A stretch of DNA of 64,000 bases from an uncultured bacterium (GTDB lineage Bacteria; Zixibacteria; MSB-5A5; GN15; FEB-12), in assembly GCA_965372795.1 (NCBI GenBank), contig CBDVDR010000002.1:160001-224000 (forward strand), written 5' to 3'. Each line of letters begins with the position of its first letter. The stretch's first letter is position 1. This document shows positions 24,701-39,700 of this stretch, one piece after another. A program made the position numbers.

Positions 24701-27700
24701 CGAGTCAATTTGTTTATCTGACAGTTGTCCGATTTTGTCGTAGGTCAAAAACAGATATTCGCCATTATAAAAGGGGTCGTTTGTTTTGGGAGCAAAAACC
24801 GCATCATAGTAAAAACTGGCATCACCGACGTTGTTCTGTGCTAAGTACAAATCGACCGTTGGGTAATCAATTTTCACCCAGTCATCAGGGAGATTAAAAT
24901 AAAACTCGCCGCTTAAACTGACATAGTTTTTTGCAAACGAACTTGTCAGAGTTACAGTTATTAATACTATTACTACAATTGTAAGCAGTTTAATAAAAGC
25001 TCTCATACATTATTCCCCTGTTAAAGCTTGAAGTTTTTCGGTTGAATAAATATCCAACTCATTCATCCATTTGGTTAAATAACTAACTCTGTCCTTTTCG
25101 CTCAAGGTTGACAGATCAAAAGGTCTGCCACGACCATCAAGGATAACACCGACCACGCCGCCATAAACATCTTTTTCGATTTTCTGTCCTTTACCGGCGC
25201 CAAGATCGTAATGTTTGGTAGGTTCAAACGTAGCTTTGGCAACTATCGGGAGTCCGTTTTCCTGAATACCGAGGTTGAATTTTTTCATTTCGAGATGTTC
25301 AAGAGTACCACTGACCGTTCCGGATGGAAGTTCAATAGTGTAATTCATAACCGGTCCGGCACCTTTTTTGGGAACACCAACCGGGGCAACACAGGTACCA
25401 AGATGGATCAGGCAATCTTTTTCAAATACTTCAGTAGCAGCTTTTGGCTGAACTTCGGTCAAGACCCCAAGCTGAGGCATCATGAAGATTGAGTCGACAG
25501 CCAGACGGGTGACACCTTCCGGTAAGAAAGAATCAATCATCATCAAAGCTGATTGCTGACGGCGAGGTGCGTGAGAAAGAACACCGCCGGAACCGATAAG
25601 CATATCGAGCGTCATCATGTTTACAATGGTAGCACCGGAAGCCGACTGTTCGAAAGCATCGGCAATGGTACGCTGTTGTTGAACGCCTTTTAAGACGGTC
25701 GCAAAGTTTTTGTGCTGAATGAAGGCGAGACGAAGAGCTTCTTTGGCAATTGCCTGTTCAAAAATTAGTTCTTCAAGAGATTGCGGGATCGTAGTCGGGC
25801 GAATCATTTTGTTTTTAACACGGTTTCTGAGGTCGCGTTCATCCATCGGGAATGGTACCCAGCGCATAACCATAGGCAGGGTAGCTTCGGCAAATACATT
25901 TGAGATAGAGTATGACATGCCAAGGTTAGCTGATACCGTACGGTTAAAGACGCCTTCGCCGTCATCTTCCGGACGGAAGACAGAGAATACATCGGTGGTT
26001 GCTCCACCAATGTCAACGCCAACGGCTTCAATATTGTACTGTTCGGCGATAGTTTGAATAATCAGACCAACTGCTCCCGGGGTAGGCATAATTGGAGCAT
26101 CGCCCCATTCCATTAGTTTTTTATAGCCGGGTGCCTGAGCCATGACGTGTTCCATGAACAGTTCATGGATTTCTTCACGGGCAGGACCAAGATTTTCACG
26201 TTCTAAGACAGGACGAAGATTGTCGACAACTTTTAAGTCAACTTTATCAGAAAGAGTTTCTTCAACGTTTTTAGCGGCATCTTTATTGCCGGCATAAATA
26301 ATCGGTAGTTTGTAACTTGAGCCAAGACGAGGGCGCGGGTCGGCGGCTGAAATAAGTTCGGCAAGTTCGACTACGTGAGTAGTTGTGCCACCGTCAATGC
26401 CGCCGGACAGGAGAATCATGTCGGGGCGTAAGTGGCGAATGCGTTCAATTTGTTGATGGGGGAGACGTTTATCATTGGATGAGATAACGTCCATGACAAT
26501 TGCGCCGGCACCAAGGGCGGCACGTTCGGCTGATTCGGCAGTCATTGATCTGACCACGCCGGCAACCATCATCTGTAAGCCACCTCCGGCTGATGATGTA
26601 GAGATGAAGACATCGGTACCAGTATTACCTTGGGCAGGGGAAATGAATTTGCCGTTTTCGTCAAGAATTTTCCTGCCGGATAATTCTTCGAGTTCCGCAA
26701 CAGCGTTGAGAACGCCCATAGTTACATCTTCAAACGGTGCTTCAACCGTAGTTGGAGCTTCACCTCTTGTAGTTTGGCGATACTCACCATTAATGAATTC
26801 AATAAGAATTGCTTTTGTAGTAGTAGATCCGCAATCGGTGGCGACAATAATTTTAATATCGTCAGGGTTATCAAACTTAGCCATTTGAAAAAACCTGTTA
26901 TTTAAATTTTAAAATTCTCTTACTTTATTGCGATAACTAATGAAACCAAAATAGTTTATCGCTTACAGTCCGTTTAACAAAGGGTGGCATTATACATAAA
27001 ACATCAAATCTTGTAAAGAGCCTTTTTAGTATAAATTAGAATTATAAGACGGCAAATAGCGGGAATTATCCAATTTATCAGAAAATGAAATTTATCGAAC
27101 GCTTTGTAGTTCATTCACAGATAGTTACAAGGGTTAAATTGCACTAATCTTTCTTTTTTCTTGACTTCAAAATACCAGTCTGATAGATTGGCAACTTATT
27201 AGTATTTTATGAGGTTTGTTCTGATTTTTAGTTTGATGTTTTAAACAAGTTAATCGTTACTGAATTAACTCTAACTTGAAATGTTGGTTCTTTGGTTGAG
27301 GAAATGACTTTGAGTGACTTTTTGAACAATACACCTTCCATAAAAATTTTCAGGAATTACCTTATATATACATTTTTGTTACTTTTCCTAATTACATCAA
27401 ATATTTATTCACAAGATGAAATAGAGCCGGTTGATGAGCCAGCTCAAGTCTCCGATTCAGTCTTAGAAACTTTTGTACCTTCTCCCATAACTGGAATTTC
27501 GGTAAAAGATACTCCTAATGATGCCGGTAATTCAATTACAATCACTTGGGGATTATCACCTGATGATACAGTTGGCGGTAAAGTAGTAAAATATAGAATT
27601 CTCCGGTCTGATACCAGTTTTGCCGGGGATGGATATAAAGAGGTCGGCGATGTGCCGGCTGATAAAAATGAATATATTGATGGTCAGGTTGATGACGATC

Positions 27701-36700: not shown

Positions 36701-39700
36701 TGGTGATTTTGGTGCTAAAACATCTAACTGGCTTATGAATGTTCCCAACTTGGCAGCTCAGCGAGCTATCGTTATCGGGATTGGTCTCGGTATCGTTGCT
36801 ACTGCTCTAAAAGTTATCCTGGGCATTGAACGCGGCTATATGGGGAAAGGATAAGGAGGACAGTATGGATGTATTTGAAAAACTGATGAATCTTGACCGT
36901 CGCTGGGTCTTTTTGCTTTTGATAATTGTTTGTGTATTCTCATATGCTGTTGATTTTAATGTTCCCATTTTGGTTGAACCGGAAACAGAAAAGATATTTG
37001 AGTTTATTGACAATCTTGATGAAGGCGAAATTATACTAGTTGCAATAGATTATGATCCTAATAACATGGCCGAACTTCACCCTATGACCTATACGGTGGT
37101 TGAGCATTGCTGGCGTAAAAAAGTCAAAGTGATTTTTACAGCTTTGTCTCAGAACGGTCCCGGCATGGCGGATCAGGCGATACGTGATATCTCAGACTCA
37201 TTACTTATTGATAAAACTTATAACGGTGTTGAGTTTGAAGGCCGAGAGATCGTAAATGGAATAGATTACTGCTTCCTTGGTTATAAACCATATTATGCAC
37301 TTGTAATTCTGGCAATGGGGCAGGATTTCAGACTGCCTTTCCCGAATGATTACTATGGCAGTCCCCTTGATTCATTACCAATGATGAGAGGTGTCAGCAA
37401 TTACGATGACATGGCTTGTGTTGTTGATCTTTCCGGTGGTAATATAACTGATGCCTGGATTTCATACGGACAGGGCAGATTCGGATTCCCGCTTGCTCTT
37501 GGGCTTACCGGTGTAATGACAGCTCAGTATTATCCATTCCTTGGTTCAGGTCAGGTTTTTGGAATAATGGGAGGACTTTTAGGAGCCGCCCAATATGAAG
37601 AAATGGCTGAGAATCCCGGCTTGGCTAAAGATGGAATGCGAGTTCAGCTTGGGGCTCATGTTGTAATCATAATTTTTATTATTATGGGTAACGTTGGATT
37701 ATTGATGGAACGTCGCAGACAAAGAAGGGAAGGAGGTATCTAATGGATTTTACTACTTTTATATGGACTACTTTTGGTGCCTTTTTAACCCTTGGCATCT
37801 TTTCGTTCCTGTACAAAGATAACCCATTCTATAAGATTGCCGAGCATCTTGTAGTAGGTGTTTCAGCAGGATATTTTGTGGTTATTTTATGGCATAACGG
37901 ACTAACCCCAAACCTATTTCAACGTCTTGACGATGGCAGTTGGTATTTACTATGGCTAAATTCTTCAGCGCCATGGTATATTGTGCCGGCGCTTTTGGGT
38001 GTCTTGATGTGGACTCGTTTCTCAAAGAAATATTCCTGGGTTTCCCGTTGGCCGATGGGCTTATATATTGGTATTGCAACCGGTGTTGCTATCCCGCTTG
38101 AAATGGGTGCCAAAGTAAACCGTCAGTTGTTTGCAGTCATGGAAAAAGGTATCGATTGGACCAATTTCTTTGGTGTCAATGGATTTAATCTGTTGGATTC
38201 AGCTTCCGGCTTATCACAGTTAATAATTTTCGTCGGAACTGTTGCCGCTTTGGTGTACTTTTTCTTCTCCAAAGCCCATACCGGTGTTTTTGGCGGAGTT
38301 GCAAAGTTTGGAATCTGGATATTAATGATAGGTTTCGGAGCCTCTTTTGGCTATACGGTGATGGCTCGAATATCACTGTTTATTAACCGTCTGCAGTTCC
38401 TTGATATCAACTGGTATCAGAATGCGATGGATACTTCCAACGCCAATCATCATGCCGGCTTCCTAATCTTTTTCTGGTTGCTGGTACTGCTTGTGCTTGG
38501 ATATGCAGTTAAAGAATTTATAGATTTCAGGAAATCTAAGTCAGCTTAATAGATTTTTAGTTTAAAAATAAATCCCGTTATTGAGAAATAGCGGGATTTT
38601 TTTGTTGTATTATCAAACTTTTTATTATAACTACAGTACAAGGATTAGAACTTGTTGCCCCCGGCTGGAATTATTTCAGCCATAAATTCATTTCCGAGCT
38701 TGCCTTTTTACGGCAGGCAATAATCAAATAAGACAACTTTGGTTTGTTTTTTTGTCGTATTTATTCGTATAATCAAATATGACATTGTTAATGTATGTCA
38801 AGTAAATCACCTTAAACTCAGTACTTTAAGGGGGACAATGGTTTGTATGTTCCTGAGATGAACAGCATAACTCATGTTATTCCTTTGTTTTAAGATATCT
38901 ATAAATTGATCAATGAAATAAGTCATTCAACGACTGCTCATTAAGAAATAATTATTTTAGAAAAAACAAAGATTTTACTTGACATACAGGTAATAATTTC
39001 CTACCGTAACTATTGGAGGAACTGATCAGGCTTGTCCTGATATAAAATTATCTATAAATGGGTAGCAACTAATCACAGGGAAAGTGAGGATGTATGGCTC
39101 AAACAAATGGAGCCTCAATTCACACCAACACCGAACCTGCTAACGCCGGTAGCGAGATTCTTAAATTGAAAAAAAGGGGTAAACTATCTACAGCGGAAGC
39201 TCGTCGTGAGTATCAGAGGCAGTACTACCAGAAGCACAAAGAGAAGGCAAAAGAATATCAGCGTCAGTATAATTTAACCCATAAGAAAAAAGCCCGTGGC
39301 GGGCGTGGGAAAACCGGTGTAATCGCTCAACGCGAAGTAGTCAGATCGACATTTAATACAACTGATTTGATGCATTCACCAGTTGAAAAGACGCTAAAAA
39401 TGCTTGAACAGATCATAAAAGGCGAACGACTTTTTACAATGTAAGAAGTTGACAGCATTGAATTTTAAGGCGGTTGAGAATAATAATTATTTTCAACCGC
39501 CTTTTATATTGCTTGTAAGGTTTTGATGTAATAGATTCTGCGTAGAATTTGGCAAATCTTTTAATTTAGTATGAGGGTCGATTAAATGGCTGCCAGAAAA
39601 ACTGTAGCAAAGAAAAAGACGGCCAAAAAAGCCGTAAAACAAAAGAAAAAAGCAACACCGAAGGTGACCAAAAAAGTGATGAAAACTGAGACTAAAGAAA

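Follow-up and report, generated by a model that had tools for sequence, protein, structure and literature searches.

The window, the whole 64,000-nucleotide stretch of DNA analysed here, lies on contig C2 of an uncultured bacterium (genome G000) and carries three tandem copies of a four-gene membrane cassette, A-B-C-D, with three genes on the opposite strand next to them. The features, in window positions, are as follows.

23099..24223, minus strand: n0, soluble protein of about 375 amino acids (aa), single copy in the genome
24251..25006, minus strand: n18, 251 aa, signal peptide and C-terminal membrane anchor, between n1 and n0
25010..26884, minus strand: n1, 624 aa, GlmL/MutL-like actin-fold (ASKHA) ATPase, divergent from A1, single copy in the genome
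26885..27291, no strand: divergent intergenic region between n1 and A1, from the ORF map
27292..28587, plus strand: A1, signal peptide, FN3 ectodomain, transmembrane helix (TM), predicted cytoplasmic DUF6754 domain, C-terminal TM
28591..29238, plus strand: B1, 215 aa, six TMs predicted by hydropathy, N- and C-termini predicted inside
29239..30249, plus strand: C1, two additional N-terminal TMs, then a TM, a predicted periplasmic domain of ~215 aa and a TM
30257..30880, plus strand: D1, 207 aa, polytopic
30880..32112, plus strand: A2, FN3 and DUF6754
32125..32799, plus strand: B2, from the ORF listing and paralogue BLASTP
32792..33739, plus strand: C2 (the cassette gene), from the same two sources
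33736..34578, plus strand: D2, from the same two sources
34625..36025, plus strand: A3, FN3 with an insertion of ~60 aa, and DUF6754
36039..36854, plus strand: B3, 271 aa, with an insertion that brings extra TMs
36826..37743, plus strand: C3, from the ORF listing and paralogue BLASTP
37743..38549, plus strand: D3, 268 aa, additional C-terminal TM
38570..38599, plus strand: terminator-like hairpin (consensus scan only), stem of 13 bp and then a T run, located 21 nt past the D3 stop

The three tandem cassettes reported by an earlier survey of the genome are real: 12 co-directional plus-strand ORFs run as A-B-C-D three times over from 27292 to 38549. With the start of D1 taken as the ATG at 30257, neighbouring genes are separated by -29 to +46 nt; the longest D1 ORF, from a TTG at 30197, would share 53 nt with C1. 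The true start of A1 may be the ATG at 27304, and C3 has an alternative ATG at 36865. The 12-gene transcription unit probably ends at the hairpin downstream of D3. A consensus scan of the n1-A1 intergenic region revealed promoter-like hexamers on both strands, and an Rfam search of the same region returned no match at E<=1.

PF20539 (DUF6754) matched five places in G000, three on contig C2, one on C7 (149110-149853, minus strand) and one on C18 (48578-49327, plus strand), in agreement with the survey's count of five cassettes. On the last two contigs, our own ORF calls placed B, C and D after A (contig positions).

Contig C7, 146939-149940, minus strand: fourth cassette
Contig C18, 48524-51400, plus strand: fifth cassette (start previously given as 48545)

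The C18 copy had been known from ORF calls and BLASTP alone; Pfam now confirms its A protein, A5, as it does A4. Scanning the whole genome with family HMMs yielded exactly five each of A, B, C and D. All five A proteins are clear DUF6754 members (E 1e-98 to 1e-128; 3.8e-128 for A1, 6.2e-125 for A2 and 7.5e-114 for A3), and the Pfam entry spans this domain of A only, leaving out the partner families. As the survey had stated, B, C and D lack a family: their best Pfam matches were no better than E 0.001 and fell under the curated cut-offs, above which n0, n2 and n13 (see below) also had no match. BLASTP identities between paralogues (A 38-58%, B 30-48%, C 29-40%, D 34-48%) support the view that these are five old paralogous sets, and the DUF6754 part is the best-conserved region of the cassette (46-58%, against 29-40% for C). 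Between different families, BLASTP gave nothing better than E 0.04 and hhalign of the four family alignments gave a probability below 4% in every pairing; therefore, A, B, C and D are four unrelated families. The sequences of solved structures contained no match for B, C or D, and known folds none for B or D, whose AlphaFold2 models have a pTM of only 0.52-0.55 (pLDDT 79.6 for B1 and 80.5 for D1). The relatives listed for the C2 cassette protein (n=120) were all unnamed or 'hypothetical' and without a Pfam family. A literature search turned up no mention of DUF6754, PF20539 or PF13941, the family to which n1 belongs, in any paper; the system is undescribed so far and unstudied.

DUF6754 was present in 41/41 genomes of our sample of the phylum (9 families, 29 genera), every one of which is labelled as the same class or closer, with five copies in 30 genomes, four in 6, three in 3, six in 1 and two in 1. 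Tandem copies in these own-class genomes are spaced ~3.5-3.7 kb apart, and the layout of three tandem and two single cassettes is kept across the class, as the survey had proposed; its 14 model-organism controls were again without a PF20539 match. Its description of a core rather than accessory machine holds within the class but not elsewhere, as DUF6754 occurs in only 32/121 Planctomycetota and 4/121 Acidobacteriota genomes. The order A-B-C-D, in contrast, extends to other phyla: a complete run was found in 68 of 78 loci under more than ten phylum labels, giving 93 complete cassettes across the 78 loci. Contig ends interrupt nine of the ten remaining loci, and the sole two departures from the order are ORF-calling artefacts. 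Because of these complete runs, and because the genes abut or overlap, ABCD is an operon-level unit.

The unit is nevertheless larger than the four genes first described, since ABCD is strictly co-inherited, in many phyla of uncultured bacteria, and usually clustered with n1, with n0 and with a pair of small membrane proteins: n2, which forms a small hairpin, and n13, which has two TMs and a PH-like domain. In G000, this pair lies on contig C5. n0 directly precedes A in 19/78 loci and n1 precedes A in 16/78, with five more seen as antisense shadow ORFs. This clustering occurs under the labels Zixibacteria, Fermentibacteria, Planctomycetota, Acidobacteriota and Coatesbacteria, and in one genome labelled Gemmatimonadota (G004). 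The n0-A junction is tight, with a 9-nt gap in locus L066 and overlaps in L068, L072 and L092. Two orders recur: n13-n2-n1-n0-A-B-C-D (L092 and L064, and L066 minus n13) and n13-n2-A-B-C-D-n1-n0 (L093; L094, whose examined stretch stops after n1; and L096 minus n13). n18 is limited to the lineage of G000, where its position is kept in L011, L016, L017, L025 and L034, and has no Pfam family. Among 121 Planctomycetota genomes, DUF6754 was found in 32, n0 in 30, PF13941 in 31 and n2 in 31, all four jointly in 30 and none of them in 88; the partial holders are G071 (DUF6754 and n2 only), G097 (DUF6754 only) and G057 (a weak PF13941 match only). In Acidobacteriota, DUF6754 and n0 share the same 4/121 genomes, with the genes adjacent, and all 5/5 genomes under other phylum labels hold n0, n1 and DUF6754, one of them with the three at three different loci.

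Could ABCD be self-contained, its tie to n0, n1 and n2 reflecting only shared ancestry and conserved synteny? None of the n genes lies near the C7 and C18 cassettes. In Poribacteria, where n0, n1 and DUF6754 occupy three separate loci, and in the WOR-3 genome examined, ABCD does not have n0 and n1 as neighbours. Moreover, the Fisher p-values for co-occurrence in Planctomycetota take no account of kinship and so overstate the case, and co-inheritance within one phylum could be the ancestry of a single clade. However, the link recurs under at least eight phylum labels and in two different orders of one gene set, and n0 was found in 0/89 and 0/117 of the DUF6754-negative Planctomycetota and Acidobacteriota genomes. 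Fusions also argue against self-containment: about 47 near-full-length protein clusters (974-1022 aa) with PF13941 join n1 to n0, which is aligned over 99-100% at 40-54% identity (one sequence, P0135, was inspected directly), and a single n0::A read-through or fusion was seen. We therefore consider a self-contained ABCD very doubtful. Taken together, the directly observed gene content, gene order, co-inheritance, fusions and copy numbers make it well supported that ABCD is the membrane part of a larger system of n13, n2, n1, n0 and A-B-C-D.

n1 shows an end-to-end match to PF13941 (positions 1-450, E 8.9e-130, 434 bits) and thereby resembles two proteins of the PF13941 and TIGR01319 type: GlmL/MutL, an accessory to glutamate mutase, and a GlmL-related protein of ornithine degradation. 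Conservation across 14 sequences reaches at least 90% for its motifs ATDCGSTTTKAILI and GVDIGGATTD, which we take to be the phosphate and adenosine motifs of ASKHA proteins, and the ATP site looks intact. In contrast to these relatives, n1 scores under the NCBIfam cut-offs (240.7 against 475 for GlmL, 223 against 600 for Or-4 and 177.5 against 204 for TIGR01319), is longer by ~130 C-terminal residues and has no B12-mutase genes in its neighbourhood; its partners by co-inheritance, clustering or fusion are n0 and the membrane module. The clan of PF13941 places n1 in the actin-fold ATPase superfamily, and n1 might polymerise in an actin-like manner, with ABCD, n2 and n13 tethering the filament to the membrane and envelope as RodZ, MreC and MreD do for MreB. 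Tol-Pal or ExbBD genes do adjoin the system in the window and in eight loci, but n1 is most closely related to GlmL and proteins of the hydantoinase type rather than to filament formers, and an anchor would leave the n0 fusion and five paralogous membrane modules unexplained; this reading is highly improbable. The Tol or Exb neighbours also recall Tol-Pal and TonB-ExbBD, inner-membrane complexes whose ectodomains, beta-propellers (TolB) among them, let them act on the periplasm or outer membrane. Those complexes, however, are powered by the proton-motive force through the MotA_ExbB and ExbD families, which neither B nor D matches.

n0 combines an N-terminal barrel-sandwich hybrid, a Gly-rich, alpha/beta-looking middle and a KOW/SH3-like C-terminus. 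Its mean column identity is 68% in an alignment of 17 sequences, and its weak Pfam matches are to Biotin_lipoyl (13/17 members), RnfC_N (8/17, best E 8.8e-5), NQRA_N (5/17) and KOW (2/17). These matches bring to mind a diverged redox-driven ion pump of the Rnf/Na+-NQR type, in which n0 would correspond to the N-terminus of NqrA or RnfC, peripheral subunits with the same hybrid fold, B and D to the two six-TM subunits of ~200 aa, and C to the membrane-anchored periplasmic alpha/beta subunit NqrC or RnfG. The likeness of subunit sizes and topologies is superficial, however. B, C and D had no match to Rnf-Nqr or FMN_bind at E<=1, the alignments of B and D contain no invariant or near-invariant Cys, no partner has an Fe-S, flavin or NAD(P)H-binding domain, and NqrD, NqrE, RnfA and RnfE are not among the fold-search matches listed for B and D. 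As the known complexes also lack an ATPase partner, we find such a pump scarcely credible.

Positive charges flanking the TMs, averaged over 95 A and 84 C sequences, suggest by the positive-inside rule how the membrane part is oriented. A has 1.7 K+R before TM1 and 4.7 after it, and C has 3.5 before TM1 and 4.1 past its last TM; from this we infer that DUF6754 lies in the cytoplasm and that the domain of C lies outside, anchored at both ends. The ectodomain of A varies (FN3, PQQ-type beta-propellers, RHS repeats) and is absent from cassettes 4 and 5 and from many single-copy systems. Variable ectodomains upon a conserved cytoplasmic domain are a hallmark of receptors, and the cassettes might form a signalling array in which A is the receptor, its variable ectodomain sensing cues from the envelope or from outside, the other three proteins serve to stabilise or gate A, and a single n1-n0 is the common output, much as chemoreceptors converge on CheA. 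Some members of a paralogous, fused n1::n0-like family bear XRE-type HTH domains, which would fit a regulatory role. Still, three more dedicated membrane proteins for each receptor would be a heavy load, many A proteins lack an ectodomain altogether and none of the eight proteins contains any known signalling domain, so that we hold this array decidedly unlikely.

Solute uptake is a further reading, and one we regard as rather unlikely. ABCD would be a permease, either secondary or dependent on a binding protein, in which C supplies the membrane-tethered periplasmic binding domain, and n1-n0 would be a soluble enzyme, akin to a kinase or hydantoinase, by which the imported compound is trapped or converted; the five cassettes would import five related substrates. 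A cassette has about 16 TMs, divergence between paralogues is greatest in the predicted periplasmic protein C, n1 is weakly similar to Hydantoinase_A, kinases are numerous among ASKHA proteins, and n0 shows enzyme-like conservation (52% identity between phyla, with invariant Gly-rich motifs). Yet the searches recovered neither a family nor a fold known from permeases or binding proteins, the conserved neighbourhood lacks catabolic genes, and FN3, beta-propeller and RHS ectodomains are unusual among solute permeases. Near-perfect co-inheritance with one enzyme (30/32 and 4/4 here) is likewise rare for transporters.

Because G000 has one n1 and one n0 for five cassettes (n13 and n2 are also single), we favour, with roughly even confidence, a cytoplasmic ATPase module that serves several paralogous membrane modules; in other genomes, ratios of n1 and n0 to cassettes of 1:6, 1:2, 1:1 and 2:4 were seen. 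This proposal resembles MsiK-type ABC importers, which share one ATPase, and the mechanotransmission ABC systems FtsEX, MacB and LolCDE, in which the periplasmic domain of a bitopic or polytopic subunit would take up the movement. The likeness would be one of working logic, a single cytoplasmic ATPase with several membrane modules, and not of membership: none of the eight proteins matches ABC_tran, BPD_transp or FtsX, and the ATPase has an actin fold in place of a P-loop fold. Weighing against a motor, we know of no ASKHA-driven transporter, GlmL relatives are generally regarded as soluble proteins that assist B12 mutases, and the ectodomain pattern of A is also that of receptors. B, C and D have few conserved charged residues within their TMs, so no ion or substrate path could be assigned, and the low pTM of the B and D models and the HTH-bearing n1::n0-like paralogues count on the same side.

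As for how the shared ATPase might work, its contact with the membrane proteins, its coupling to ATP, the direction in which it acts and its cargo are, like the topology above, all inferred. n1 and n0, which are one polypeptide in many organisms, would act as one unit that hydrolyses ATP in the cytoplasm and, purely by conjecture, docks onto the highly conserved DUF6754 domain of A. A, B, C and D would assemble as a bundle of TMs that relays the ATP-driven change outward to the periplasmic domain of C and to the variable ectodomain of A, if any. Outside, the system would move or act on an envelope or periplasmic ligand, and the five cassettes may thus represent five specificities with one motor common to all.

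The array at window positions 27292-38549 comprises 12 co-directional ORFs, which the ORF listing resolves into three A-B-C-D cassettes. With the D1 start set to the ATG at 30257, neighbouring genes abut or overlap (gaps of -29 to +46 nt); the longest D1 ORF, from the TTG at 30197, overlaps C1 by 53 nt. Two single cassettes lie on other contigs of the source genome, and in each of them A is recognized by Pfam and B, C and D follow it by ORF calls.

C7:146939-149940 (-), cassette 4 (A4-D4)
C18:48524-51400 (+), cassette 5 (A5-D5)

A search of this genome with HMMs made from the five sets gives exactly five members each for A, B, C and D, and DUF6754 (PF20539), the family of A, has five places there and a match in none of 14 control genomes of model organisms. 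The layout of three tandem and two single four-gene cassettes described by the survey is thus upheld by ORF calls, Pfam and the HMM scan, as is the C18 copy, previously based on ORF calls and BLASTP, whose A5 now scores 329.5 bits against DUF6754. The other A proteins score 426.5 (A1), 415.9 (A2), 379.6 (A3) and 396.2 bits (A4), so that all five pass the gathering score of 27 bits over the whole 257-position model, and the E-values of the tandem copies (3.8e-128, 6.2e-125 and 7.5e-114 for A1, A2 and A3) agree with the identification already made. The statement that B, C and D belong to no family also held, as they gave nothing better than E 0.001, always below the curated Pfam cut-offs, and none of A-D reaches an NCBIfam cut-off. 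The four families are mutually unrelated (hhalign probability below 4% for every pair), and on these values the idea that the cassette arose from a duplicated two-gene unit (A resembling C, and B resembling D) was dropped.

A terminator-like hairpin lies at 38570-38599, 3' of D3; Rfam gave no element in the window, and none in 26800-27400 at E<=1. Just past the terminator, 39094-39444 (+) encodes a very basic protein of 116 aa without a Pfam family, and its homologues, at 77-83% identity, hold the same post-array place in four sampled loci (L016, L017, L046 and L054), a conservation far above that of the cassette proteins. The C7 cassette lies downstream of a co-directional gene for a 987-aa protein with a weak FN3 match (C7:150555-153518, -), with one small opposite-strand gene in between, and is followed by a 386-aa ORF (C7:145852-147012, -) that overlaps the end of D4 and contains, in its interior, a hydrophobic stretch resembling a lipobox. 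Transcribed away from the C18 cassette is an ABC importer operon of the sugar type (C18:45518-48416, -) with SBP_bac_1 and two BPD_transp_1 permeases; an ATPase gene was not found on the importer side in the 10 kb examined.

Paralogues within a family are 29-58% identical. In a DUF6754 tree, which is descriptive only, A1, A2 and A3 each group with the gene at the corresponding place (first, second or third) in other tandem arrays, and A4 and A5 fall with other clades. Because the tandem copies group by array position, the paralogue types are positionally fixed and old, and their age is what the survey had concluded from the divergence of the sets. Retention across the class was likewise borne out: DUF6754 is present in 41/41 genomes of the own-phylum sample (all of the same class or closer; 9 families, 29 genera), 30 of them with five copies, and tandem copies are about 3.5 kb apart. 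Among relatives with a label, the closest are MAGs given as Zixibacteria or 'Ignavibacteriales'.

The gene order in other phyla, a gap named by the survey, was addressed by a scan of species-representative genomes, which yielded 611 confirmed stretches, from which 78 loci were kept, all from MAGs. Their labels include Zixibacteria, WOR-3, Stahlbacteria, Poribacteria, Cloacimonadota, Fermentibacteria, Coatesbacteria, Planctomycetota/Phycisphaerae, Acidobacteriota, Eisenbacteria, Gemmatimonadota, Aegiribacteria and 'Deltaproteobacteria', and those of the system further include Eremiobacterota and Armatimonadota. At least one complete A-B-C-D run occurs in 68 of the 78 loci (93 cassettes in total); nine of the remaining ten are cut by contig ends, and the other is L008. 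Departures from the A-B-C-D order numbered just two, both of them ORF-calling artefacts. L008 lies on a Zixibacteria chromosome, which carries normal cassettes as well; its lone 795-aa DUF6754 protein (7986-10373, +) is fused at its C terminus to an S49 (SppA-like) peptidase, has no B, C or D after it and has a very long branch of its own in the tree of A.

Clustering of the flanking ORFs in the 78 loci revealed a recurrent block, n13-n2-n1-n0, immediately 5' of A. In the source genome n0, n1, n2 and n13 are each single-copy and lie in two places.

25010-26884, n1, PF13941 ATPase, divergently upstream of A1
24251-25006, n18, lineage-specific anchored protein, divergently upstream of A1
23099-24223, n0, soluble protein, divergently upstream of A1
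C5:152711-153717, the pair n13-n2, two small membrane proteins

Two other neighbour candidates were discarded: n17 is a shadow ORF antisense to n1 that appears in genomes of high GC content, and PPDK gave one weak, distant match among the 78 loci. The cassette and its companions recur under many of the phylum labels above as a set that is strictly inherited together, and samples of genomes from other phyla show them as follows.

Occurrence of DUF6754 and companion families in genomes of other phyla
121 Planctomycetota genomes: DUF6754 in 32, n0 in 30, PF13941 (n1) in 31, n2 in 31; all four in 30
121 Acidobacteriota genomes: DUF6754 in 4, n0 in 4; the same 4 genomes, with the genes adjacent
5 genomes with five other phylum labels: DUF6754 in 5, n0 in 5, PF13941 in 5; all three in 5

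None of the four families occurs in 88 of the 121 Planctomycetota genomes, and three genomes depart from joint presence: G071 has DUF6754 and n2 alone, G097 has just DUF6754, which lies on a very short contig, and G057 has nothing but a weak PF13941 match. Several of the Planctomycetota carriers, for example G078, G100, G052 and G041, are assembled as one contig. In a Poribacteria-labelled genome DUF6754, n0 and n1 lie at three separate loci. Elsewhere the genes form one co-directional cluster in either of two orders, n13-n2-n1-n0-A-B-C-D (L092 and L064; L066 without n13) or n13-n2-A-B-C-D-n1-n0 (L093; L094, whose stretch ends after n1; L096 without n13). Moreover, n1 and n0 form a near-full-length single polypeptide of 974-1022 aa in 47 protein clusters, which carry PF13941 and align over 99-100% of n0 at 40-54% identity; one of these sequences was read directly. 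An n0::A protein of 707 aa is known from one member, which may be a read-through.

Mere synteny is a rival reading of these neighbourhoods. As the kinship of the genomes reached through the loci was not reported, counts within a phylum cannot be taken as independent events; the case for a link between ABCD and the companions rests on its recurrence in several phyla, on the existence of two gene orders and on the fusions. The composition has good support, and we consider it probable that n0, n1, n2 and ABCD form one system, which takes about 22 kb, or 0.65%, of the 3.35-Mb genome. The four-gene machine of the survey is real and stands as the membrane core, but the system is larger, with the ATPase partner n1, n0 and n2, and this ATPase partnership is the main addition to the four-gene module.

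A second, more distant n1::n0-like fused family (about 940-1060 aa, 26-35% identity to n0 over about 65%) was also observed (L091:11844-14825, -, and protein clusters P0176-P0244); XRE-type HTH or zinc-ribbon domains are present in part of this family, and the Cloacimonadota copy adjoins a GT4 glycosyltransferase. In addition, divergent sequences similar to n0 (E about 1e-43 to 1e-50; G036:C4, G129:C308, G067:C106 and G023:C95) lie beside a third n1 paralogue and have one or two in-frame stops (TGA/TAG) inside the match, which may mark gene boundaries, pseudogenes or recoding.

The n1 protein (about 620 aa) belongs to PF13941 ('MutL', the GlmL family; E about 1e-128), whose members are actin-fold ATPases, and its ATP-site-like motifs are at least 90% conserved. 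Compared with GlmL itself, n1 is a Pfam-level member (433.9 bits against a gathering score of 27) that falls below the NCBIfam GlmL cut-offs, with 240.7 bits against 475 for NF040745, the equivalog for the methylaspartate mutase accessory protein, and 177.5 against 204 for TIGR01319, and has no B12-mutase family among 16 flanking proteins. The reading of the system as a cytoskeletal anchor is a rival at this point.

The soluble n0 (375 aa) has 68% mean column identity across phyla. Its N terminus gives a weak barrel-sandwich hybrid signal (Biotin_lipoyl in 13, RnfC_N in 8 and NQRA_N in 5 of 17 members), and its C-terminal end is KOW-like. The idea that n0 mimics a cassette domain was abandoned at hhalign probabilities below 4%. 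The best RnfC_N match among the members has E 8.8e-5 and the best NQRA_N match E 0.0011, the two matches listed with scores (16.4-19.1 bits) lie below their cut-offs, and these matches indicate only a putative generic barrel-sandwich hybrid domain. An Rnf/NQR-like pump is the rival that these matches touch upon; B, C and D of the three window cassettes gave no Rnf-Nqr or FMN_bind match at E<=1, and, whereas an NqrD/E-like pair has conserved Cys ligands, no column that is invariant or nearly so holds Cys in B (71 sequences) or D (69 sequences). The likeness to Rnf/NQR is one of logic or subunit outline only.

A1-A3 begin with a signal peptide and an ectodomain, which A4 and A5 lack. In the window the ectodomain is of the FN3 type: a profile of 82 A proteins matches, across its positions 34-141 or so, FN3 domains of titin (E 3.3e-22) and neogenin, and further FN3 domains. 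Pfam fn3 does not appear at E<=1 on the single window sequences, and PF00041 is precomputed on long relatives. Among lineages the ectodomain differs, being FN3, PQQ-type beta-propellers or RHS repeats. It is followed by a TM, the DUF6754 domain of about 200 aa and a strongly hydrophobic C-terminal TM. Because K+R averages 1.7 before and 4.7 after TM1 (n=95 A sequences), the DUF6754 domain should be cytoplasmic; because the flanks of C carry 3.5 ahead of TM1 and 4.1 beyond the last TM (n=84 C sequences), its domain of about 215 aa should be periplasmic, with both ends inside, both placements following from the positive-inside rule. Invariant acidic and Gly residues are numerous in the DUF6754 domain, in motifs such as GRATE, AESLxLAETG, QIAGT and ACDxTLxGEEL, and this domain is the best-conserved cassette part among paralogues. 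The AlphaFold models of B (71-row alignment; pLDDT 79.6, pTM 0.55) and D (69-row; pLDDT 80.5, pTM 0.52) are all-helical with unusually long helices. No family was matched by either of the small proteins, n2 of about 135 aa and n13 of about 150 aa with two TMs.

Six of the eight families have neither a Pfam/NCBIfam match passing a curated cut-off nor a solved sequence relative at E <0.05, and no fold match where tested. Profile searches of the PDB gave no match at E<=10 for B and D, best values of E 0.19 for C and 0.052 for n0, and none for the DUF6754 part of A, as all A-profile matches below E 0.7 belonged to the FN3-type ectodomain. In the ESM Atlas no usable match was found for the DUF6754 domain with PF20539 excluded, and the clusters returned for n0, some of them from Chloroflexota, were all 'hypothetical'; the 120 relatives listed for C2 (the C protein of cassette 2) were all unnamed or 'hypothetical', without a Pfam domain. 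PADLOC defence-system models gave no family for nine proteins, and among the PHROGs phage models only tail fibre J was matched, by A1, with a similarity of the FN3 type (E 3.9e-4). No paper naming DUF6754, PF20539 or PF13941 was found in the literature searched.

We propose that n1-n0 would act as a cytoplasmic ATP-hydrolysing unit that may dock on the conserved DUF6754 domain, and that the ABCD bundle of about 16 TMs would pass the resulting change on to the periplasmic domain of C and to the A ectodomain. The varying A ectodomain, the conserved cytoplasmic A domain and the presence of one n1-n0 per one to six cassettes in the genomes examined suggest a shared motor with several envelope-directed membrane modules. 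Two further rivals are a receptor array and a solute importer with its enzyme. No Pfam match at E<=1 to the mannose-type PTS (EIIC-man, EIID, EIIA-man, PTSIIB_sorb) was found, and A-D, n0, n1, n2, n13 and n18 include no ABC_tran or known ABC permease family; known families were not matched for the rival readings in general. With shared-ATPase ABC systems, FtsEX/MacB and Tol-Pal, the proposed shared motor likewise has in common only its logic or subunit outline. B and D gave no MotA_ExbB/ExbD Pfam match, and their fold searches listed single-helix alignments only. A Tol-Pal-type cluster (MotA_ExbB, ExbD, TonB_C, TolB/PD40) lies on the same strand 292 nt downstream of n0 (19605-22807, -), and TolQ/ExbB-ExbD genes lie no more than a few kb from the system in eight loci (L017, L029, L034, L035, L041, L045, L057 and L064); these neighbours are at most a hint toward the envelope.

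In summary, the system is real, ancient, widely scattered and unstudied. To our knowledge, GlmL-type ATPases have so far been linked only to B12 mutases, and through this system they gain a membrane context. Tentatively, it may represent a new class of primary active membrane machine, in which an actin-fold GlmL-type ATPase, fused to or paired with a barrel-sandwich/KOW adaptor, would power interchangeable four-subunit modules of unseen folds for envelope-ward transport or force transmission, a question that the defined gene set makes directly testable. If true, the ABC, P-type, rotary and PMF-driven Tol/Ton systems would be joined by a further energising principle, one that would be universal in Zixibacteria-like lineages and scattered over at least a dozen mostly uncultured phyla.
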